Source of the DNA: Candidatus Micrarchaeota archaeon
Lineage (GTDB): Archaea; Micrarchaeota; Micrarchaeia; Norongarragalinales; Norongarragalinaceae
Direction of reading: 5' to 3'
Assembly (NCBI GenBank): GCA_016207165.1
Contig: JACQQD010000003.1
Coordinates: forward strand, 32,001 to 96,000
DNA: 64,000 nt
Position 1 is the first letter of the stretch. Each line of letters begins with the position of its first letter. Of this stretch, positions 13,304 to 62,657 are shown piece after piece. Under the pieces are notes generated by a model. The model was given only the letters and a program-made list of their open reading frames with translations, was not told the DNA's origin and did not search any database. A program made the translations under genes and the position numbers.

Positions 13304-13422
13304 AGTGACAGCAGCAACCCGCGTTCCCACCTGAAAAGGCAGTACTGGCAGGGTCGTACGGGGGCTTTGCTTCTGTGTTCGGAAAGGGAACAGGCGTTAC
13401 CCCCCGCCTATGGCCGCTGTCG
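13304..13422 (-). rRNA. rrf: 5S rRNA (stand-alone)
   Basis: Reverse strand reads GACAGCGGCCATAG...CCCTTTCCGAACACAGAAG.AAGCCC...AGTACT...GGGAA...GCTGCTGTC with pairing termini; TATTAATA upstream, pyrimidine tract downstream. Confidence 0.95.
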
Positions 13423-15457: not shown

Positions 15458-15754
15458 ATGAAAGACGTATACGCCGCTCTGTTGCTGCACAAAGCCGGGC
15501 AACCCATCAACGAAGAAAACGTGAACAAAGTGTTGATGGCCGCCGGCGTGCAGGAAGACGCAACCAAGATTAAGGCGTTGTGCGTGGCCCTGGACGGCGT
15601 CAACATTGACGACGCCGTTTCGAAGGCCGCGGTCGTTGCCGCCGCTCCAAGCGTTGGAGCCGCGGGCGCCGCCGCTGAAGAAAAGAAGGAAGAGGAAAGC
15701 GCGGAGAAAAAGGAAGAGGAAGCCGCCGCCGGCTTGGCGTCGCTCTTCGGCTAA
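15458..15754 (+). CDS. rpl12: Ribosomal stalk protein P1/L12
   Basis: YAALLLH, acidic hinge, C-terminal GLASLFG. Confidence 0.97.
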
Positions 15755-20063: not shown

Positions 20064-21521
20064 ATGCTTCGAAGCATTCAGCCCAAGCAGGACTGGAACC
20101 AACGCGTGCTGCGCGTACTGAAGGAAGCCCCCAAACTCAAGAAGCTCCGCGTCTTGGCGGGGTTTAACGCGGTCACAGACTACATCAAGTTCGTGGATTC
20201 CAAAACCGTGCTGAAAGCCTTCAGCGGATTGGATGAAGCGGAACGCAAAAAAGCGCTGGACAAAAGCCAATCCGACGCCAACCACCTAACCCACCCCAGA
20301 GACTTTTTGGCGCAGCTTTTCCGGTGCATGCGCATCGGCAAAGCGGGTTTAGTCGTCGCGTCCCCGGAAGTGCTCAAGTGGCTGGACGACGCCTTTGGCG
20401 CGCCGGACGAAAAGCGCTTGGGGGGACAAGCCGCCCTGATGGCCGCCCAACTCTCGGAATTGGGAGCCCGCGCCTGCATCTACCCCGCCAACCTGTCCGT
20501 GGACCAAGCCAAACTGATTCCCGACGACGTCTGCGTGCCGGTGGCCGACAAAAAGAAACTCAAGCTCGCAAAGCCCCTGAAAGCCGCCCGACCCGAAGAC
20601 CCCACCCAAACCAGTTGGATTTTTGAATTCACCCACGGCCAAGTCCTGGAACTGCCTGGCGAACGCATCGAGTGCCCACGGCAGAACCGCCTCATCGTCG
20701 CCTACCCCTCCAACTACACCGCCGCCTTCAAGAAAGACATGGAACCCGCGCTGCCCAAGCTCGCCAAGCAAATCGACGTACTGCTCGTGTCCGGCTACCA
20801 TGCCCTGGACGCCAAAACCGCGAAAAAGGAGTTGGCCACGATAACGGACCAACTCAAAAAGATGCGCAACGCCAACAAGAAAATCCAAGTCCACTACGAA
20901 TTCGTGCCCTACGAGGATGACGCCGTCGGAAAAGCCGCCCTCAAGGCGCTCTCCGGCCTCATTGACAGCATGGGCATGAATGAAGTGGAGCTCGTCAACG
21001 TCTTGAAGTTGTTGGGATTCAAGAAAAACGCGCAGGACATCGAAAAACACGAGTGCGCCGAAACGCTCTACGAAGGCGCGGCCGCCGTCCTGGAAAAACT
21101 CCGGCTTCAACGCGTCCACGTGCACAGCCTCGGCTACAACGTTCTGGTCGTATCCAAGAAAGTGGACGCCGACGCGGCGCGCGACGGCGCGCTTTTTGGC
21201 TCCGCGGCCGCCACCGTCAAATCCACGACCGGTAAATTGGGCCAAGCCGAATTTTCCAAGGAGGTCTTCCTCAAAATTTCCGAAACCGGGTACAACCAAA
21301 TCGGGCAATTCGAGTCCTCCATCTGGGACTCGTGGCAGAAAAAGAAGCGAAAACCCATTTCCTCTCTTTTAAGAAAACAGTTCATGAGCTCCGGCATCTT
21401 CGACGAACAAAAAACGCATACCGCCATCATCGTTCCGGCGCCAGTGGCTACCGGGTTAAAGACCACCGTGGGATTGGGCGACGTCGTCTCGGCGTGCGCC
21501 ATTGCCTTCCAAGCCGCCTGA
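20064..21521 (+). CDS. ADP-dependent glucokinase/phosphofructokinase family
   Basis: FN..TD, R.GGQA..MA, IFEF, NRLI, SGY, GMNE.E, TVGLGD. Confidence 0.9.
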   Translation: MLRSIQPKQDWNQRVLRVLKEAPKLKKLRVLAGFNAVTDYIKFVDSKTVLKAFSGLDEAERKKALDKSQSDANHLTHPRDFLAQLFRCMRIGKAGLVVASPEVLKWLDDAFGAPDEKRLGGQAALMAAQLSELGARACIYPANLSVDQAKLIPDDVCVPVADKKKLKLAKPLKAARPEDPTQTSWIFEFTHGQVLELPGERIECPRQNRLIVAYPSNYTAAFKKDMEPALPKLAKQIDVLLVSGYHALDAKTAKKELATITDQLKKMRNANKKIQVHYEFVPYEDDAVGKAALKALSGLIDSMGMNEVELVNVLKLLGFKKNAQDIEKHECAETLYEGAAAVLEKLRLQRVHVHSLGYNVLVVSKKVDADAARDGALFGSAAATVKSTTGKLGQAEFSKEVFLKISETGYNQIGQFESSIWDSWQKKKRKPISSLLRKQFMSSGIFDEQKTHTAIIVPAPVATGLKTTVGLGDVVSACAIAFQAA

Positions 21522-21526
21522 AACCC

Positions 21527-22183
21527 ATGAGCCCCCCGCTTCCCCGCATCATTGGCGTTGAACATTACCCCTGGAACTTGGACGAAGCAAAAAAAGTCGT
21601 TGACGCACTCCCCGGAAGCTCCCGCGTGGGCCTGGAAATGGATTTGCCGCCCTTACTCCACGAGGCCTTCCAGAAAAAGTACCCCCGTCTGACTGGATCC
21701 GGAATTTACGGCGCCACCGGTTTTTTCAATGAACTGGCGAAGTACGCGACGAAGCGCGGCCACACCATCGTGTGGCTGGACCACCCGACGCGATCCATGG
21801 CAGGCGTACACCCCCTGCTTGAAAAAATGGAGCGGTACCTGGACCAACGCGCAAAAAATGGCGAACCCGCCGACATGCTACCGGTCCAAATGATATTCGG
21901 TTTTCGGGCGTTGACCCAAAGGCTCGCGCCATTCCGATCCAAAATCATGGCGCACAAAATACGTCGGACGCCATGGGCGGAAACGGACGTGGCCCTTTTG
22001 GGGGGCTTCCACGCCGAAGACGTGGCCGAGGCACTCAATGCACGCGTGGAGAAACAGATCGGCGAAACCACGCCTCAACAAGCCCGTAACGCCCGAAACG
22101 CATTCGAAGAATTTCGGTCAACGCAGGACGTGCGCCAATGGGTGGACGATTTCCTAAAGGGGCTCAAACAGCAAGGCACTTGA
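21527..22183 (+). CDS. Orphan with possible TraB/EreA/ChaN-like metal-site motifs
   Basis: IIGVEH, VGLE, WLD, R...M..KI, GGFH. Confidence 0.45.
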   Translation: MSPPLPRIIGVEHYPWNLDEAKKVVDALPGSSRVGLEMDLPPLLHEAFQKKYPRLTGSGIYGATGFFNELAKYATKRGHTIVWLDHPTRSMAGVHPLLEKMERYLDQRAKNGEPADMLPVQMIFGFRALTQRLAPFRSKIMAHKIRRTPWAETDVALLGGFHAEDVAEALNARVEKQIGETTPQQARNARNAFEEFRSTQDVRQWVDDFLKGLKQQGT

Positions 22184-22196
22184 CGCCACCCCCCGC

Positions 22197-22373
22197 AAAA
22201 ACCATTTAAACCCGGCTTGCCACCAAGAACAACGGTTGGAATGGCCCGGGATTTACTTTGCCGTTGAAAACGTCGTTTTAGCGTCCAGCCCGTTGCTTTT
22301 TCAATGTCGTTGTCCCTTGAAAGCCCAGCGTTAGCTTGGCCCCGGAACGCGTTGGGAAGAAGGACAACGAAAA
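22197..22373 (+). promoter_or_regulatory. Promoter (TTTAAA 22205-22210) and structured 5' leader of the cysteine operon, with uORF MARDLLCR (22241-22267)
   Basis: Stems 22230-40/22284-95 and 22307-15/22362-70; T-tract 22297-22301. Confidence 0.6.
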
Positions 22374-22778
22374 ATGAGGGAGAACATCATGATCATGGAA
22401 ACGCGCCGGCTTTGGGCGCATGAAGAAACAAGGCCCGAACACAAGGAACACTTGAAAAAACAGATTGTGGAAAGCCAGACCATCACGCCCATCGTGGTGG
22501 ACCGGGAGACCTTCGTGGTTTTGGACGGCCACCACCGCCTGCAAATCGTCCAAGAACTGGGTTTTGGAAAAATACCCGTGCACTGGATGGATTACGGCGA
22601 CGCGTCCATCGAAGTGAAAGCCTACGACACCGGAACGCCCTTGGACAAGGCGCACGTGATTGCGCGCGCCAAACAAAAAAGGTTGTACCCGCCGAAAAGC
22701 ACGCGGCACACGTATCAAGGAAAACACGTGTCCGAGTGGACGGAAAAACACCCGGTTTCACTATCGGAGTTGAAATGA
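22374..22778 (+). CDS. ParB/Srx-fold protein, SerK/SbnI-like free L-serine kinase (compact)
   Basis: L.AHE, PIVV, LDGHHR, P...DY and C-terminal YPPKSTRH resemble SerK motifs; heads the cysteine operon. Confidence 0.7.
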   Translation: MRENIMIMETRRLWAHEETRPEHKEHLKKQIVESQTITPIVVDRETFVVLDGHHRLQIVQELGFGKIPVHWMDYGDASIEVKAYDTGTPLDKAHVIARAKQKRLYPPKSTRHTYQGKHVSEWTEKHPVSLSELK

Positions 22779-22781
22779 CGA

Positions 22782-23726
22782 ATGCATGAATCCATCCTGG
22801 ACGCCGTGGGAAACACGCCTCTGGTCAAACTCAAGAAAATCGGCAAAAACCTCGGCGCCCGACTCTACGCGAAAGTCGAGTACGTCAACCCCGGCGGATC
22901 CGTCAAGGACCGCATGGCCATCCAAATGGTGGCCGACGCCGAAAAACAAGGGTTGCTGAAAAAAGGCGGCACCCTCGTCGAGCCCACGTCCGGCAACACC
23001 GGTGCGGGATTGGCCGTGGTGGCCGCCGTCAAAGGCTACCACTGCATTTTCGTTGTACCGGACAAAGTCAGCCCCGAAAAAATCGACTTGCTGAAAGCCT
23101 ACGGTGCCGAAGTCGTCGTCACGCCCACCAACGTGGAACGCGAGGACCCCCAAAGCTATTACTCCGTCGCCGACCGCTTGGCCAAAGAAAGAAACGCATT
23201 CCAGCCCAACCAGTACTTCAACCCCTCCAACCCCTTGGCGCACTACGCGTCCACGGGCCCTGAAATCTGGGAACAAACCAAAGGCAACGTCACGCATTTC
23301 GTGGCCGGCATGGGAACCGGAGGCACGATTTCAGGAGTCTCGAAATTCCTCAAAGAACAAAACCCGAAAATCCAGGTGGTGGGCGCGGACCCGGAAGGCT
23401 CCATTTACTCGTCCAAAGACATCCACCAGTACAAAGTCGAAGGCATTGGCGAAGACTTTTACCCCGGAACCATGGACCTCAAATTGGTGGACCGCATCAT
23501 TCAGACGCACGACGCGGAAAGCCTGTCCATGACGCGCCGGCTCGCGCGAGAAGAAGGCATCCTGGTTGGCGGGTCCTCGGGGGCGGCCACCGTGGCGGCC
23601 GTGAAACTCGCCGAAGAACTGGAAAAAGACGCGCTGGTCGTCGTGCTCTTGCCCGATGGCGGACGAGGTTACCTCAGCAAAGTCTTCTCCGACGCGTGGA
23701 TGGAAAAAAACGGTTTTGAAGTGTGA
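22782..23726 (+). CDS. PLP-dependent cystathionine beta-synthase / cysteine synthase (no regulatory CBS domains)
   Basis: GNTPLV, NPGGSVKDR, EPTSGNTG, GMGTGGT, EGIG.DF. Confidence 0.93.
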   Translation: MHESILDAVGNTPLVKLKKIGKNLGARLYAKVEYVNPGGSVKDRMAIQMVADAEKQGLLKKGGTLVEPTSGNTGAGLAVVAAVKGYHCIFVVPDKVSPEKIDLLKAYGAEVVVTPTNVEREDPQSYYSVADRLAKERNAFQPNQYFNPSNPLAHYASTGPEIWEQTKGNVTHFVAGMGTGGTISGVSKFLKEQNPKIQVVGADPEGSIYSSKDIHQYKVEGIGEDFYPGTMDLKLVDRIIQTHDAESLSMTRRLAREEGILVGGSSGAATVAAVKLAEELEKDALVVVLLPDGGRGYLSKVFSDAWMEKNGFEV

Positions 23727-23790
23727 CCATGCGGTTGAACACGAACGTTTTGCTGAAACAAAACGATTCACGAAAAAGGGGTCTGGCGCA

Positions 23791-24933
23791 GTGAAGTTCA
23801 ACACGAAAGCGGTTCACGCCGGAGAAAAACCGGATTCCGCCACCGGGGCCCTGGCAACGCCCATTTATCAGACGAGCACGTACGCCCAGGACGCGCCCAA
23901 CCAACACAAGGGCTTCGATTACAGCCGGGCGGCCAACCCCACCCGGCAAATCCTGGAAAACAATTTGGCGGCCCTGGAAAACGTGGATTACGCCGTGGCA
24001 TTCTCTTCGGGCTTGGCGGCCACAAGCTCGGTGTTGAACTTGTTCAAGCAAGGCGACCATGTGGTCGCGTCACAAGACATGTACGGCGGCACGTACCGGT
24101 TGTTCAAGCAACTCTACGAAAAATACGGAGTCACCTTTGATTTCGTTGACGCGACGAACTCGGACGCCCTGCAATCCGCCATCAAACCCAACACCAAACT
24201 CGTATGGATTGAAACCCCCTCCAACCCGCTTCTCAAAATTACGGACATCAAAGCCGCCGCCGCCATCGCCCACGACGCCAACGCGCGGTTGGCCGTGGAC
24301 AGCACCTTGGCCACGCCCCACCTACAACAACCCTTTTCCTTGGGGGCCGACTTGGTCGTGCATTCCACCACGAAGTACCTCAACGGACACGCCGACGTCA
24401 TCGGCGGCGCGGTATGCGTCAAAGACAAAACCCTCTACGAACAGTTGCGCTTCTGGCAGAAGTCCGTGGGATCGGTTCCGGGCCCCCTGGATTGCTATTT
24501 GGTGTTGCGCGGAATCAAGACCCTGCCGCTTCGCATGGACCAGCACTCCAAGAACGCCATGACCGTCGCCCAATTCCTGCAAAGCCATCCCAAAGTCAAG
24601 CGCGTCATTTACCCCGGACTTCAAAGCCACCCCCAACACGAATTGGCGAAAAAACAGATGACCGCGTTTTCAGGAATGATTGCCGTGGAATTGGACGCCT
24701 CCTTTGAAAAAGCCATGGCGTTTGCCTCCAACTTGGAACTGTTCACCTTGGCCGAGGACTTGGGGGGAGTCAAGAGCCTGACGTGCCACCCGGCGTCCAT
24801 GACGCACGCCGCCGTCCCAAAACAAGAACGCCTCAAAACGGGATTCACCGACGAACTCATCCGCCTGAGCATCGGCATCGAGGACGCCGACGACCTCATC
24901 GAAGACCTTGAAAAAGCGCTGGACCCATTGTAG
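23791..24933 (+). CDS. Cystathionine gamma-lyase/synthase (Cys/Met PLP enzyme)
   Basis: PIYQTSTY, YSR..NPT, ETPSNP, HSTTKY.NGH.D, LIRLSIGIED. Confidence 0.93.
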   Translation: MKFNTKAVHAGEKPDSATGALATPIYQTSTYAQDAPNQHKGFDYSRAANPTRQILENNLAALENVDYAVAFSSGLAATSSVLNLFKQGDHVVASQDMYGGTYRLFKQLYEKYGVTFDFVDATNSDALQSAIKPNTKLVWIETPSNPLLKITDIKAAAAIAHDANARLAVDSTLATPHLQQPFSLGADLVVHSTTKYLNGHADVIGGAVCVKDKTLYEQLRFWQKSVGSVPGPLDCYLVLRGIKTLPLRMDQHSKNAMTVAQFLQSHPKVKRVIYPGLQSHPQHELAKKQMTAFSGMIAVELDASFEKAMAFASNLELFTLAEDLGGVKSLTCHPASMTHAAVPKQERLKTGFTDELIRLSIGIEDADDLIEDLEKALDPL

Positions 24934-26340
24934 ATGAATATGCCGAAATTCTTCAACACATTGACCCGCAAGAAGGAAGCGTTCAAGCCCCTCCAGAACA
25001 ACTTAGTGCGCTGGTACGCATGCGGCCCCACGGTGTACAATTATCCCCACATCGGCAACTACCGCGCGTACGCGTTTGTTGACTTGCTCCGCCGCTTTCT
25101 GGAATGGAAGAACTACAAAGTCATGCTGGTCATGAACATCACGGATGTGGACGACAAAACCATCCGCGACTCCCAAAAACAAGGCAAAACATTGGAAGAA
25201 TTCACGCGGTTCTACGAGAAAGGCTTTTTCGAGGACCTGCAAACACTGAACATTAAGCCCGCTAACTACTATCCCAGAGCCACGGACCACATCAACGACA
25301 TGGTCAGCCTCATTGGCGAATTGACGCTGGCCCACAAGGCGTACCAAGGCTCAGACGGGTCATGGTACTACAAGATTTCCGAGTTCTTGGACTACGGCAA
25401 GCTCTCGGGCCTCCAACAAAAGGACTTGAAAGCCGGAGCCTCCGGCCGCGTGGCGGCGGATGAATACACCAAGGACAACGTCTCCGACTTCGTATTGTGG
25501 AAAGCCTGGCAGCCAGACGACGGCGACGTGTACTGGGAAACCCGTCTTGGAAAAGGAAGGCCCGGCTGGCACATTGAATGCTCCGCCATGAGCACCAAGT
25601 ACCTGGGGTTTAGCTTTGACATCCACACCGGCGGCGTGGACTTAAAATTCCCCCACCACGAAAACGAGATTGCCCAGTCGGAAGGCGCGTCCAAAAAACC
25701 GTTTGTCAAGTACTGGCTGCACAACGAGCACCTCCTGGTTGAAGGCAAGAAAATGTCAAAATCCCTGGGCAACTTCTACACGCTGCGCGACTTGTTGGAC
25801 AAAAACCTCAAACCCGCGGCCATCCGCTACGCGCTCATTGCCACGCACTACCGAAGCCAACTGAACTTCACGTTTGACGTGGTGCACGCCGCAGAAAAAA
25901 CGCTGGACCGCCTCCAAGACTTTTTGGCTCGAGCGAAAGAAGCGGATGGAAAAAACAATCCCGGCTTGGAAAACGCGATCAAAAACACGAAAAAACGATT
26001 TGAAGACGCGTTGGACGACGACTTGGACGTCGCGCAGGCCCTCTCGGCGGTCTTTGAACTGGAGCACCAAGCCAACAAGGCCATGGCGCTGGGCCACGTC
26101 TCCAAAAAACAAGCCGAACGAATCGCAGACTTCTTTTGGAACGATTTTAACGCGGTCTTCGGCGTCCTGGAAAAAAAGTCCGCCACCGTGCCGAAAACCG
26201 TTTTGGACCTCGTGGAGAAACGGGAAGCCGCCCGAAAAAAGAAGGACTTCAAGGCCGCGGACGCGCTTCGAAACCAAATCAAGGAAAAGGGCTTCGAGGT
26301 CGTGGACGAGGCCACTGGGCCCCGGCTGAAAAAAACCTAA
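24934..26340 (+). CDS. cysS: Cysteinyl-tRNA synthetase
   Basis: CGPTVY, HIGN, GRPGWHIEC, FPHHENE, KMSKS. Confidence 0.98.
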   Translation: MNMPKFFNTLTRKKEAFKPLQNNLVRWYACGPTVYNYPHIGNYRAYAFVDLLRRFLEWKNYKVMLVMNITDVDDKTIRDSQKQGKTLEEFTRFYEKGFFEDLQTLNIKPANYYPRATDHINDMVSLIGELTLAHKAYQGSDGSWYYKISEFLDYGKLSGLQQKDLKAGASGRVAADEYTKDNVSDFVLWKAWQPDDGDVYWETRLGKGRPGWHIECSAMSTKYLGFSFDIHTGGVDLKFPHHENEIAQSEGASKKPFVKYWLHNEHLLVEGKKMSKSLGNFYTLRDLLDKNLKPAAIRYALIATHYRSQLNFTFDVVHAAEKTLDRLQDFLARAKEADGKNNPGLENAIKNTKKRFEDALDDDLDVAQALSAVFELEHQANKAMALGHVSKKQAERIADFFWNDFNAVFGVLEKKSATVPKTVLDLVEKREAARKKKDFKAADALRNQIKEKGFEVVDEATGPRLKKT

Positions 26341-31778: not shown

Positions 31779-32266
31779 AGAATCGTGAAAGACAGATCCG
31801 CATTGGTCACGTGCACTTAACCGTTTCAAATCTCTCCCTATCCATCGCGTTTTACCGGTTGCTGGGATTTGAAATCACGCAAAGAATGGGTGACCAAGCC
31901 GCGTTCTTGTCCTCTGGCGGATATCATCACACCATCGGATTGAACACGTGGAGCAAACCCGGAGCCCAAAAACCACAAAGCGGCCAAATCGGTTTGTACC
32001 ACGTCGCCATCCTCTACCCGAACCGAATTGAATTGGCCAAGGCCGTCAAGCGGTTGCTTGCCGCCGGACACGAATTGGATGGGACGGCGGACCACGGCGT
32101 GTCGGAATCCGTGTACGTGAAGGACCCCGACGGCAACGGATTGGAGTTGTACGCCGACCGAAAAGAATCCGATTGGCCCCGCGACGCGCAAGGAAACCTC
32201 AACATGGCCACGAATCCACTGGATTTGAACGCGTTGCTTCAAGACGCCGAAACCCATTCGAAGTAA
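31775..32266 (+). CDS. VOC/glyoxalase family protein
   Basis: IGHVHL.V, GGYHH.IGLNTW, GLYH.AI, DHGVSE..Y..DPDGNG.ELY. Confidence 0.92.
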   Translation: MKNRERQIRIGHVHLTVSNLSLSIAFYRLLGFEITQRMGDQAAFLSSGGYHHTIGLNTWSKPGAQKPQSGQIGLYHVAILYPNRIELAKAVKRLLAAGHELDGTADHGVSESVYVKDPDGNGLELYADRKESDWPRDAQGNLNMATNPLDLNALLQDAETHSK

Positions 32267-36709: not shown

Positions 36710-37147
36710 TCACCTTACGTTTTTGGACGACAACTCGACGTATCGGGCTGGCAAGTCCTCCACGGTCCGCACGCCGAACACGCGTTCAAAGCGGTTTCGG
36801 ACGAGGGCCTGGGGGACGACGCCGTAAGCCAACAAAAATTCCGTGAAACGGTCCGTCAAGCGCCGTCCGTCCGCGTCAAAGTCGAACAACAACACCACGC
36901 CATGCTGACCGCACAGCGTCGCGTTTTTTTCGACGAAGCGCAACGGCGGCCCGTGGGGAGTGAACACCAACGCATCCACGCCCAAGGCCTCCAACGCCTT
37001 TTTGTCGCGTTTTCCTTCCACGAGGACCACGCGGCCTTCCAACAACTGGAGGGTCTTGTCCAGGACCGATTGCACGGTTTGGGCCTTCAAAGCCTGATTT
37101 TTCAACCTCGAGTTCAGCCTATGCGCGAATGCGTTCGCGTTCGGCAA
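36710..37147 (-). CDS. Small TOPRIM-domain protein (start uncertain)
   Basis: VEGKRD..AL..LG, LLFDFD..G. Confidence 0.8.
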   Translation of the reverse strand: MPNANAFAHRLNSRLKNQALKAQTVQSVLDKTLQLLEGRVVLVEGKRDKKALEALGVDALVFTPHGPPLRFVEKNATLCGQHGVVLLFDFDADGRRLTDRFTEFLLAYGVVPQALVRNRFERVFGVRTVEDLPARYVELSSKNVR

Positions 37148-44430: not shown

Positions 44431-44966
44431 ACCGCCTCAACACCCACCACGTCGCCAAAAGAGAATACCGCACCAAAAAACGGCGTTCCAAACACCGGAA
44501 ACGGAAAATTCGGGCCCCACGACACGTTCAAGGAGTCGTCCAGGGACTCTAAAAAAAGAAGGCCTTCGGCCACCCCCACGTCCAGGCACCGCGGACACGG
44601 ACGAATCGCTTGATCCGACCGCATCAAGTCCAGCCACGCCGAGACCTCGACATCGGAGACCAACCCGAACACCACGTCCAAGTCCACGCCCCGCTGAAGG
44701 TACGCCGCCTCCAAAAAACGTTCCCCGGCCACGGCGCGACGGCCGGCATCCAACGCCACCTCTTCCAAGGAACCGCCCCGCGCCCCAGACAGGGCATCAT
44801 GAAGAAAATTCCTCACGTCGTGGCCCACCACGCGACGTTGGCTTAACTGCATCATGGCCAGGGAATAATCGTCAAGTTCCGAGGAAAAAGAAACCAGGCT
44901 AGCCGACCAACCCGTGGCCGCCGCGATGACGCCAAACACCCAAAAAAGCGCGAACCCCCTCCTCAC
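44427..44966 (-). CDS. Pilin-like protein with class III signal-like N-terminus
   Basis: MRRG/FALFWVFGVIAA; GTGA coupling with upstream gene. Confidence 0.55.
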   Translation of the reverse strand: MRRGFALFWVFGVIAAATGWSASLVSFSSELDDYSLAMMQLSQRRVVGHDVRNFLHDALSGARGGSLEEVALDAGRRAVAGERFLEAAYLQRGVDLDVVFGLVSDVEVSAWLDLMRSDQAIRPCPRCLDVGVAEGLLFLESLDDSLNVSWGPNFPFPVFGTPFFGAVFSFGDVVGVEAV

Positions 44967-61928: not shown

Positions 61929-62657
61929 ATGGCGGAAGTCACCTTGTTGCTGGCATTCGCGGCGGGCCTCATCTCGTTTCTGAGTCCCTGCGTTCTGCCG
62001 TTGATTCCCGCGTTTTTGACGTATTTGGCCGGCTCTTCCTCCAATGAACTCCAGAAAAACCCAAGCCAAGCCAAAAAAAAGATCTTCTTTTCCAGCGTCT
62101 TTTTCGTCCTCGGGTTCTCCGTCGTATTTTCTTTACTAGGCGTGCTGCTTCAAAGCGTCCTGAGCGGAGTCGCCTTTGACTTGCGCACGTACTTGGGTTA
62201 CCTCGGCGGCGCGTTCATCATCTTCTTCGGATTGACGCTCACGGGCTTGATCCAAATTGACTTCCTCCAAAAAGACCACAAATTCGACGTCCAAAAAACC
62301 AGGCATTCGTACCCCACGTCGTTTTTGTTCGGCGCCGCGTTCGCCGTGGGCTGGACGCCCTGCGTCGGCGCGGTGCTGGGAAGCGTCCTGACTTTGGCCG
62401 CCACGCAACCCCAGACCGCGCTTCCCTTGATGCTAGCCTATTCCCTGGGTTTGGGAATTCCATTTCTAGCCGCCGGCCTGTTTTTGTCGCGCTTGACGGG
62501 TTTCATCCAAAAAATCAGCCCCCACCTGAAAACCCTCAACATCGTCTTCGGCATGCTTCTGATCGTCCTAGGCATCCTGGTGTTCACCAACACGTTGAAC
62601 GTAGTGGCCAACTGGTTTCCCGCCCTGGGACTGGCGGAATCCCTCATGGGAAACTGA
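61929..62657 (+). CDS. ccdA: CcdA/DsbD-type disulfide transporter
   Basis: SFLSPCVLP, GWTPCVG. Confidence 0.92.
   Translation: MAEVTLLLAFAAGLISFLSPCVLPLIPAFLTYLAGSSSNELQKNPSQAKKKIFFSSVFFVLGFSVVFSLLGVLLQSVLSGVAFDLRTYLGYLGGAFIIFFGLTLTGLIQIDFLQKDHKFDVQKTRHSYPTSFLFGAAFAVGWTPCVGAVLGSVLTLAATQPQTALPLMLAYSLGLGIPFLAAGLFLSRLTGFIQKISPHLKTLNIVFGMLLIVLGILVFTNTLNVVANWFPALGLAESLMGN

Follow-up and report, generated by a model that had tools for sequence, protein, structure and literature searches.

Ribosome-mediated attenuation is a textbook bacterial mechanism, and in archaea transcription and translation are coupled and many mRNAs are leaderless. The DNA analyzed here is a stretch of 64,000 nucleotides (nt) from a Candidatus Micrarchaeota archaeon (GenBank assembly GCA_016207165.1, contig JACQQD010000003.1, forward-strand positions 32,001 to 96,000), which we refer to as the window and number from its first letter. 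A spacer of 190 nt (22184-22373) in the window precedes a four-gene cysteine operon, and the long leader that is likely transcribed from it may sense cysteine (Cys) through a short open reading frame (sORF). The closest described counterparts are mycobacterial. There, ribosomes stalled in the Cys tract of leaderless polycysteine sORFs block a structure that hides the downstream ribosome-binding site; the study of this "Cys ribulon" by Canestrari et al. required at least two consecutive Cys codons (usually at least three are present), and the system has been proven by mutants and proteomics (10.1101/834739). Cys leader peptides with runs of Cys near the stop codon have also been predicted before actinobacterial cys and cbs operons (PMC1262725). 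We found no description of amino-acid attenuation by a leader ORF in archaea in the literature searched, which was mostly covered at the level of abstracts and is weak evidence of absence.

The window locus would resemble the mycobacterial system in placing a leaderless short ORF as the first cistron of a cysteine-metabolism operon, in having Cys codons in a strand that pairs around the downstream ribosome-binding site, which a stall is proposed to unmask, and in exerting control at translation, with no terminator needed. The mycobacterial sORFs are bacterial and carry AUG or GUG at the 5' end, whereas the window is archaeal and offers either a TTG-started frame with Cys-Arg-Cys or an ATG frame with one Cys; the former are experimentally proven, and the window locus is known from sequence and modelling alone. 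Genes of cysteine metabolism do lie downstream here, and a Cys stretch that pairs near the ribosome-binding site is found, in silico, in the TTG frame only. Translational attenuation of the ermC/cat type differs in its trigger, which is an antibiotic acting with the nascent peptide and which in the window would be the supply of charged tRNA (10.1101/834739).

Promoter and leader of the cysteine operon

The TTTAAA hexamer that the initial annotation had reported at 22205-22210 is present there and, preceded by an A-rich stretch resembling a TFIIB recognition element (BRE), forms an archaeal promoter (22197..22210, + strand), which we assign from the enrichment and spacing of the hexamer. The window holds 17 copies of TTTAAA, eight of them in its 3,421 intergenic bases, i.e., a density of 2.3/kb between genes against 0.15/kb in coding sequence, a 16-fold enrichment. 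The remaining intergenic boxes lie 23-50 nt ahead of the nearest credible start codon, mostly 28-37 nt, which is the leaderless arrangement. The box at 22205 is the sole one distant from its gene, with 169 nt to ATG 22374 and 184 nt to ATG 22389, the two candidate starts of the first gene of the operon (gene 1). The annotation had called the box remote from the "first ATG"; the distance holds for the gene's own ATG, and the wording was loose in that ATGs at 22241 and 22304 come earlier.

Because the box looks genuine and stands 169 nt from the gene, a long leader is the natural reading. Taking the 28-37 nt between TTTAAA and start codon at leaderless genes as a guide, we predict that transcription starts near 22234 (about 22232-22238, + strand), about 25-30 nt past TTTAAA, and the leader is likely to be about 140 nt long, or about 155 nt if ATG 22389 is used. 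A spacer of 190 nt is unusual in this very compact genome, since most spacers in the window measure 0-45 nt in a crude gene call. Matches to Pfam and NCBIfam bear out the earlier assignment of the setting as a Cys-biosynthesis/cysS operon: the four tightly packed + strand genes 3' of the spacer encode a protein resembling the N-terminal part of SerK (SerK-N-like), a CBS/CysK-like enzyme, a cystathionine gamma-lyase/synthase and CysS, and the operon is, judging from these matches, the Cys pathway plus cysteinyl-tRNA synthetase (CysRS).

Leader folding and modelled ribosome stalls

Predicted folds were scored as z-values against dinucleotide shuffles, with 200 shuffles for the regions around the hairpin called stem B. 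The middle helix of this hairpin (22307-15 with 22362-70, a perfect 9 bp) and its inner helix (22324-31 with 22349-56) had been annotated before and hold up, being above shuffles. They are continued by an outer helix between GUU.CUUUUUCA (22292-22303) and UGAGGGAGAAC (22375-85), such that the extended hairpin spans 22292..22385 on the + strand. The core (22305-22372) has a predicted free energy (dG) of -26.5 and z -2.99 and is equalled in stability by 2 of 200 shuffles, and the extended form (22290-22388) has a dG of -35.6 kcal/mol and z -3.24, with none of 200 shuffles as stable. A separate script gave z -3.56 for the latter, and random 99-nt windows of the same DNA reached z <= -3.0 in 7 of 260 cases. 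By these folding scores, stem B extended to 22292-22385 is a real structure above chance.

The position of the hairpin bears directly on gene 1, both of whose candidate ribosome-binding regions are paired in the minimum-energy fold. The purine tract at 22355-63, ahead of ATG 22374, lies between and within the stem B helices, and the annotation was right to describe it as buried there. The Shine-Dalgarno (SD)-like GAGGGAG (22376-82), which precedes ATG 22389, pairs with the U-rich 22296-22303. Without a ribosome, the predicted probability of being unpaired is 0.36 for the purine tract and 0.14 for GAGGGAG.

Two sORFs open at leaderless distance from the promoter. The first, taken from an sORF listing of the leader, is a 32-codon frame running from TTG to TAG (22236..22334, + strand); its TTG lies 31 nt past the start of TTTAAA, midway in the 28-37 nt range, and no other frame is open from the predicted transcription start. 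It reads ...QCRCPLKAQR*, with two Cys codons among its 32 codons (UGU 22305-07 and UGU 22311-13) split by an Arg codon (CGU), all within the 5' arm of stem B (22307-15). The second is the upstream ORF (uORF) that had been annotated as MARDLLCR, whose eight codons are indeed found from ATG to TGA at 22241..22267 (+ strand), one of them for Cys (UGC 22259-61); its ATG lies 36 nt past the start of TTTAAA, at the upper edge of the leaderless spacing.

To model stalls, transcription was assumed to start at 22234, and a ribosome-sized stretch of 32 nt was forced to be single-stranded. With the ribosome at either UGU of the TTG frame, the unpaired probability of GAGGGAG rises from 0.14 to 0.57 and 0.49, that of the purine tract from 0.36 to 0.92 and 0.95, and that of the 3' arm of stem B from 0.01 to 0.70 and 0.56. 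When the ribosome is placed instead on the stop codon of the same frame, which falls in the apical loop, GAGGGAG stays at 0.17. Stalling on the single Cys codon of the ATG sORF leaves the ribosome-binding region closed (0.19 vs 0.14) and yields a predicted fold identical to that with the ribosome at the sORF stop, 6 nt away. In silico, then, a stall in the TTG frame is predicted to free the ribosome-binding site of gene 1, and within an attenuator reading we favour the TTG frame over the ATG frame.

A tentative translational attenuator

The explanation that we favour, and that we offer tentatively and with some doubt, is that the leader is a Cys-sensing translational attenuator driven by a leaderless Cys-codon sORF. 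The 190-nt spacer would consist of the promoter and a leader of about 140 nt for the four-gene cysteine operon, with transcription beginning near 22234 and leaderless short ORFs at the front of the transcript. The last two-thirds of the leader, on its 3' side, would form the hairpin 22292-22385 and hide the ribosome-binding region of gene 1, whichever ATG serves. The sensor would be the 32-codon frame from TTG 22236 to TAG 22334, whose Cys-Arg-Cys codons (22305-22313) make up the 5' arm of the hairpin. Under a shortage of Cys-tRNA, a ribosome would pause at the Cys codons and hold this arm open, the ribosome-binding site would be freed, and the operon would be translated; when Cys is plentiful, the ribosome would reach the stop codon in the apical loop, the hairpin would re-form, and initiation would be low. 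This mode would be translational attenuation of the mycobacterial polycysteine-sORF and ermC kind and not terminator-based. The transcription start, the translation of the TTG frame, the stalling and the response to cysteine are steps that we infer. The general idea of Cys sensing gains indirect support from the promoter box, the Cys operon, the mycobacterial sORFs and the Caldisericota leader described below. The long leader, the cysteine operon and possible sensing by a short ORF are kept from the initial annotation, and the specific terminator mechanism that it proposed is unsupported.

Several observations weigh against this explanation. The z-values of the hairpin were obtained on bounds picked after folding, about 3% of random windows match z <= -3.0, and the raw energy of the hairpin is ordinary, the best 100-nt window of the leader ranking 650th of 5,112. 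Both the footprint size and the transcription start in the stall model are assumptions. The TTG frame was found post hoc, its Cys codons are just two and not adjacent, and the better-placed ATG 22241, 5 nt downstream, opens the other, 8-codon frame, which has no modelled effect. With UGU-CGU-UGU in one frame and a single UGC in the other, the window has none of the consecutive Cys codons that the mycobacterial study required. It is not rare for a short random frame to contain one or two Cys codons, and Cys-containing sORFs also occur in other leaders examined. Among the relatives, the nearest homologue of gene 1 (P0002, on a 3-kb contig) is 76% identical and the rest at most 47%, and the best of the 80 loci kept from a genome scan, among which the genome of the window itself does not figure, is 43% identical over 60 residues (L074), or 41% among longer matches.

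The frame also depends on a TTG start codon. AUG, GUG and UUG act as archaeal start codons at any leader length, and UUG is avoided at fully leaderless Sulfolobus starts, both according to a review (PMC7531240). uORFs in 5' untranslated regions (UTRs) have been reported by ribosome profiling in Haloferax (PMC7261190). We looked for TTG as a leaderless start elsewhere in the window and rejected both candidates (34065, and 4431 on the minus strand), whose downstream ATGs are probably the true starts; they have Met at residue 8 or 12, and a DUF655 match begins at residue 12, which again speaks against a TTG start.

If the favoured explanation holds, which we regard as possible at best, the leader would be an archaeal ribosome-mediated sensor in which a leaderless Cys-codon sORF tunes the translation of an operon for O-phosphoserine-linked cysteine synthesis and cysS to the supply of charged tRNA-Cys, the first in Archaea as far as we found in the literature, and its origin would be independent of bacterial Cys leaders, including that of Caldisericota. 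The mechanism class is known in bacteria. Leaderless short ORFs could then act as sensors in archaea, and two codons and one hairpin would provide a simple model.

An analogous leader in Caldisericota

The comparison with relatives of gene 1 brought out a well-conserved and apparently new bacterial Cys attenuator. In Caldisericota (Cryosericum), 14 loci (L036, L040, L043, L045-L047, L049-L055 and L059; e.g., L047:5810-6010) share a conserved leader ahead of a small SerK-N-like gene that is 32-34% identical to window gene 1. In the 11 loci with a readable and scanned downstream ORF, the small gene is followed by a CysM/CysK-type enzyme, which in L047 is 40% identical to window gene 2. The leader is about 165 nt long, with a mean column identity of 87-90% over the 14 loci, and has a -35/-10-like promoter. 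A leaderless ORF of 20 codons starts about 7 nt past the -10 box, with the same frame and length in 14/14 loci (the start in L043 was set by hand for these counts), Cys at codon 9 in 13/14 and at codon 11 in 14/14, and the stop codon TAG in 13 loci and TAA in one.

A GC-rich terminator of 9 bp (GCCUCCCGG-loop-CCGGGAGGC plus a U run) lies 3' of the other helices, and across the 14 loci 97.7% of cells are paired in the terminator-state structure, which includes two compensatory pairs. The antiterminator, in which CCGAGGGGC pairs with the 5' arm of the terminator, is paired in 99.1% of cells. The Cys codons fall within the strand that holds CCGAGGGGC, and a ribosome at the stop codon of the ORF would cover this segment. 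In the five of these loci scanned, Rfam returned no family. The leader has the appearance of a classical Cys attenuator that had not been described before, and it connects a small ParB-like protein related to serine kinase with enzymes for which O-phosphoserine is, or may be, a substrate.

The Caldisericota and window leaders have in common an sORF at the predicted transcription start, Cys-x-Cys in the 5' strand of a helix and a homologous operon. They differ in that the Caldisericota leader is bacterial and has a sigma-70-type promoter, a strong intrinsic terminator and a conserved antiterminator. Homology between the two was considered and rejected: a covariance model of the Caldisericota leader (R1) recovers 14/14 training loci with E <= 4e-37 and 130-150 bits and has no match in the window at E <= 10. 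The Caldisericota leader is thus analogous, not homologous, to that of the window; what it does indicate is that an operon of this kind is under Cys-codon leader control elsewhere.

Alternative explanations

A possible though rather doubtful alternative is that nothing switches at all, such that the leader is a constitutive long 5' UTR with a hairpin, e.g., an mRNA-stability element or a leftover of operon acquisition, in which the sORFs and Cys codons are coincidental. The whole leader is no more stable than shuffles (z -0.73 and -1.62), which fits this explanation, as do the share of random windows that are as structured as stem B (about 3%), the commonness of Cys codons in short random frames and the lack of an Rfam match. 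On the other hand, this very compact genome retains about 140 nt between its only good TATA box here and the gene, and the hairpin lies exactly on the ribosome-binding region.

On the same alternative, the 5' part of the spacer may be the 3' end of the preceding transcription unit, followed by the promoter of the cysteine operon. The gene upstream of the spacer encodes 218 amino acids (aa) without a Pfam or NCBIfam match (21527..22183, + strand, from ATG 21527 to TGA 22181-83). It begins 5 nt after the gene for ADP-dependent phosphofructokinase (ADP-PFK), which ends at 21521, and is the last gene of the ADP-PFK unit; its TGA lies 22 nt ahead of the TTTAAA box. The structure at issue is the annotated stem A, which pairs 22230-40 with 22284-95 and is followed by a run of five T (T5) at 22297-22301 (22230..22301 in all, + strand). 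Pairing and T run are found where the annotation had placed them, with 11 pairs and one bulged C, and the two pairings said to compete are exact complements in the sequence. The predicted stability is not above that of shuffles (z -1.07 for 22228-22303 and -0.26 from the predicted start at 22234), and the T run is uninformative: the two strands carry 402 runs of at least five T, of which 133 lie within genes on the sense strand, and about 0.6 would be expected per 190 nt. T5 is a weak termination signal here because of these 133 runs within genes. Stem A can be extended to pair 22225-35 with 22290-22300, i.e., AAGAACAACGG/CCGTTGCTTTT, an extension that is complete only in transcripts reading through from upstream and in this respect favours a 3' end; it is at chance level even so, with z -0.85 and +0.70 in the wider frames. 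Stem A plus T5 may mark where the upstream unit ends, or be a product of chance.

It is unlikely that a trans-acting factor accounts for the leader, either an RNA-binding protein (e.g., CysRS or the ParB-like product of gene 1) or a small RNA on the hairpin, or a protein using CGTTG/CAACG as DNA operators downstream of the TATA box. The annotation had counted CGTTG four times and CAACG twice in the leader and noted an element repeated in both of its halves, and these statements are accurate, the latter element being present as TGGCCCGGGA and TGGCCCCGGA. Four copies of CGTTG compare with 0.32 expected (P = 3e-4, nominal and uncorrected for 1,024 pentamers), and 0.15% of windows reach six or more CGTTG/CAACG per 190 nt. 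Binding at the transcription start is common among archaeal repressors, and a CAACGG stands at the predicted start here. The significance of the hairpin also suits this alternative, and SbnI, to which gene 1 has a match far below the cut-off, is named a bifunctional regulator/O-phosphoserine synthase in NCBIfam. Against it, the repeats are not independent evidence, since the same bases make the stems, their spacing is irregular (29, 17 and 42 nt), and the Pfam and NCBIfam scans of neighbouring genes made no regulator gene evident next to the operon. The lineage seems to have a small genome with few regulators. The sole other 190-nt stretch with six CGTTG/CAACG in the window lies at 2000-2400, inside the region of an ERCC4-nuclease gene.

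A metabolite riboswitch is quite improbable. Stem B or the whole leader would be an aptamer for cysteine, O-phosphoserine, homocysteine, S-adenosylmethionine or S-adenosylhomocysteine (SAM/SAH) or sulfide, with the extension that hides the ribosome-binding site as the expression platform. A structured element of 68-99 nt with internal loops placed directly on the ribosome-binding site of a metabolic operon would suit such a role, and deltaproteobacterial homologues of gene 1 do stand behind the glycine riboswitch RF00504. With bacterial T-boxes and metabolite riboswitches, the leader shares its place as a structured leader ahead of a Cys-pathway/cysS operon and a proposed action on termination or initiation; it differs from them in matching no Rfam model, T-box included, up to E = 10. 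It is also a simple long hairpin with little of the multi-helix junction architecture typical of aptamers. At the gathering threshold, the whole window yielded only a lone 5S rRNA gene (13306-13421, minus strand, 70.1 bits), and at E <= 10 the region 22000-22600 yielded only other-strand hits at chance level, MS2 operator (E 1.1) and DUF3800-XI (E 6.5). By these scans the leader belongs to no known riboswitch, T-box or other cis-regulatory family in Rfam, and the ligand-binding alternative that the annotation had proposed to check by an Rfam scan finds no family match. Other kinds of element were rejected as well: ARAGORN reported no tRNA or tmRNA genes across the 64-kb window, which excludes a tRNA- or tmRNA-like element, and blastn matches of the leader are at chance level (at most 17 nt in the window and at most 31 nt in the 80 loci), which excludes a repeated or mobile element.

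A terminator switch, as originally annotated, is very improbable. Here, a stall at the single Cys codon of the 8-codon ATG uORF would toggle stem A plus U5 and thereby attenuate transcription. All the pairings that it names exist, ATG 22241 lies within leaderless spacing, 36 nt past TTTAAA, and classical attenuation precedes the homologous Caldisericota operon; the Cys codon stands beside the stop codon, as in the actinobacterial Cys leaders (PMC1262725). A likeness to attenuators of the trp/his/leu type can also be drawn, in that cognate codons in a short ORF stand before a set of biosynthesis genes and that alternative pairings can be formed, along with a hairpin that runs into U residues. 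The likeness ends with stem A, which is not above chance in any frame scored, and the predicted start near 22234, placed from the TATA spacing, cuts 22230-33 off its 5' arm and leaves it partly upstream of the transcript. The modelled ribosome positions do not switch it: the stalled and the terminating ribosome stand 6 nt apart on the same predicted fold, and constraint folding of the ATG sORF gave no antiterminator that depends on the position of the ribosome. Attenuators of the trp/his type have several, usually tandem, regulatory codons, which neither window frame has, and the uORF has one only. With stem A not above chance and T5, frequent on the sense strand inside genes (133), a poor terminator, the model of a stall that switches termination has little support. 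Archaeal termination, moreover, does not rely on hairpins.

It is likewise very improbable that the promoter at 22205 serves a separate small RNA of about 65-70 nt, or the mRNA of a micropeptide, ending at T5, with the operon transcribed from a second, weak promoter overlapping CTTTTTCAA (22296-22304), since, although this T-rich sequence could serve as a stop or as a weak TATA-like box and the first 70 nt can be folded into a three-way structure, the stability of that structure does not exceed that of shuffles (z -0.26), CTTTTTCAA differs from the window's GCTTTAAA-type boxes, and neither an Rfam match nor a second copy of the leader in the window was found.

Gene content of the operon and its surroundings

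Gene 1 (22374..22778, + strand) encodes a ParB/Srx-like protein of 134 aa, related by NCBIfam to the N-terminal part of SerK/SbnI (SerK 5.7e-11 and SbnI 3.4e-05, both far below the family cut-offs) and about half as long as SerK. Its start may be ATG 22374, which fits the lengths of homologues, or ATG 22389, which is the database gene call (P0001). Homologues start level with ATG 22374 in 7 of 11 cases in an alignment (A1), and the N-terminus MRENIM is common to gene 1 and its 76%-identical relative.

Gene 2 (22782..23726, + strand) encodes a pyridoxal phosphate (PLP) enzyme of the CBS/CysK/CysM type (Pfam PALP 4.2e-86), with NCBIfam scores of 490.7 bits for cystathionine beta-synthase (cut-off 510) and 345.5 bits for cysKM (cut-off 344). 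Gene 3 (23656..24933, + strand) belongs to the cystathionine gamma-lyase/synthase family (Pfam Cys_Met_Meta_PP 3.6e-156; NCBIfam PRK07811 527.9 bits, cut-off 513), and its translation probably begins past the stretch that overlaps gene 2. Gene 4 (24934..26340, + strand) is cysS, encoding cysteinyl-tRNA synthetase (NCBIfam TIGR00435 470.8 bits, cut-off 340).

An archaeal-type alanyl-tRNA synthetase (AlaRS) and the ADP-dependent phosphofructokinase serve as archaeal markers in the window. Many of its genes have no Pfam match, which, along with the lone 5S rRNA gene and the ARAGORN result of no tRNA genes, fits a small and poorly known archaeal genome. No other amino-acid operon with a leader of the same kind was found in the window. 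Among 100-nt segments, the lowest folding energies in the window (-50 to -56 kcal/mol) belong to 15576-15675 (both strands), 44726-44825 (minus strand), 36851-36950 (minus strand) and 62326-62425, the first of which lies at the spacer after the L10 gene.

Relatives of gene 1 and their leaders

Among the candidates scored, 12 homologues of gene 1 fell within E <= 0.001. The nearest of all, P0002, has a tail with a precomputed Cys/Met PLP-enzyme domain (PF01053); on its contig the small gene seems to run into the end of a gamma-lyase-like gene, by fusion or by a frameshift, and misassembly could produce the same picture.

The 74 downstream neighbours scanned include 23 glycine-cleavage H or P proteins and 15 PALP enzymes. 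In Deltaproteobacteria and Thermodesulfobacteriota, the small gene stands ahead of gcvH or gcvP. A scan of 12 loci detected the glycine riboswitch RF00504 upstream of it in all three deltaproteobacterial loci among them (L001:5627-5858, L012:5643-5743 and L014:5616-5717), with 70-73 bits and with the gene 1 homologue as the first gene behind the riboswitch.

A small ParB/Srx-like gene stands beside PLP enzymes in many lineages (window 22374-22778, L008, L026, L041, L057, L065, L069 and L080). The PLP neighbours are CysM/CysK-type in bacteria; the neighbour of the small gene in several archaeal loci is a PALP enzyme about 430 aa long, TrpB-like in the two that were checked (L065 and L041), the others being PALP by Pfam only. 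O-phosphoserine is a substrate of TrpB2 and of some cysteine synthases, and a minimal serine kinase would be in keeping with this.

No conserved Cys sORF was found in the archaeal loci with long upstream spacers. In two Micrarchaeota loci (L065:4543-4675 and L069:1-167), where a TrpB-like gene precedes the small gene, about 140 nt between this TrpB-like gene and a TATA-like box are conserved, and this stretch likewise contains no conserved Cys sORF. In a Falkowbacteria locus of the candidate phyla radiation (CPR), the 466-nt spacer before a pair of small gene and PALP gene has no Rfam match at the gathering threshold and contains a GC-rich hairpin, with runs of A and T after it, as well as further structure-like sequence (L038:5840-5997).

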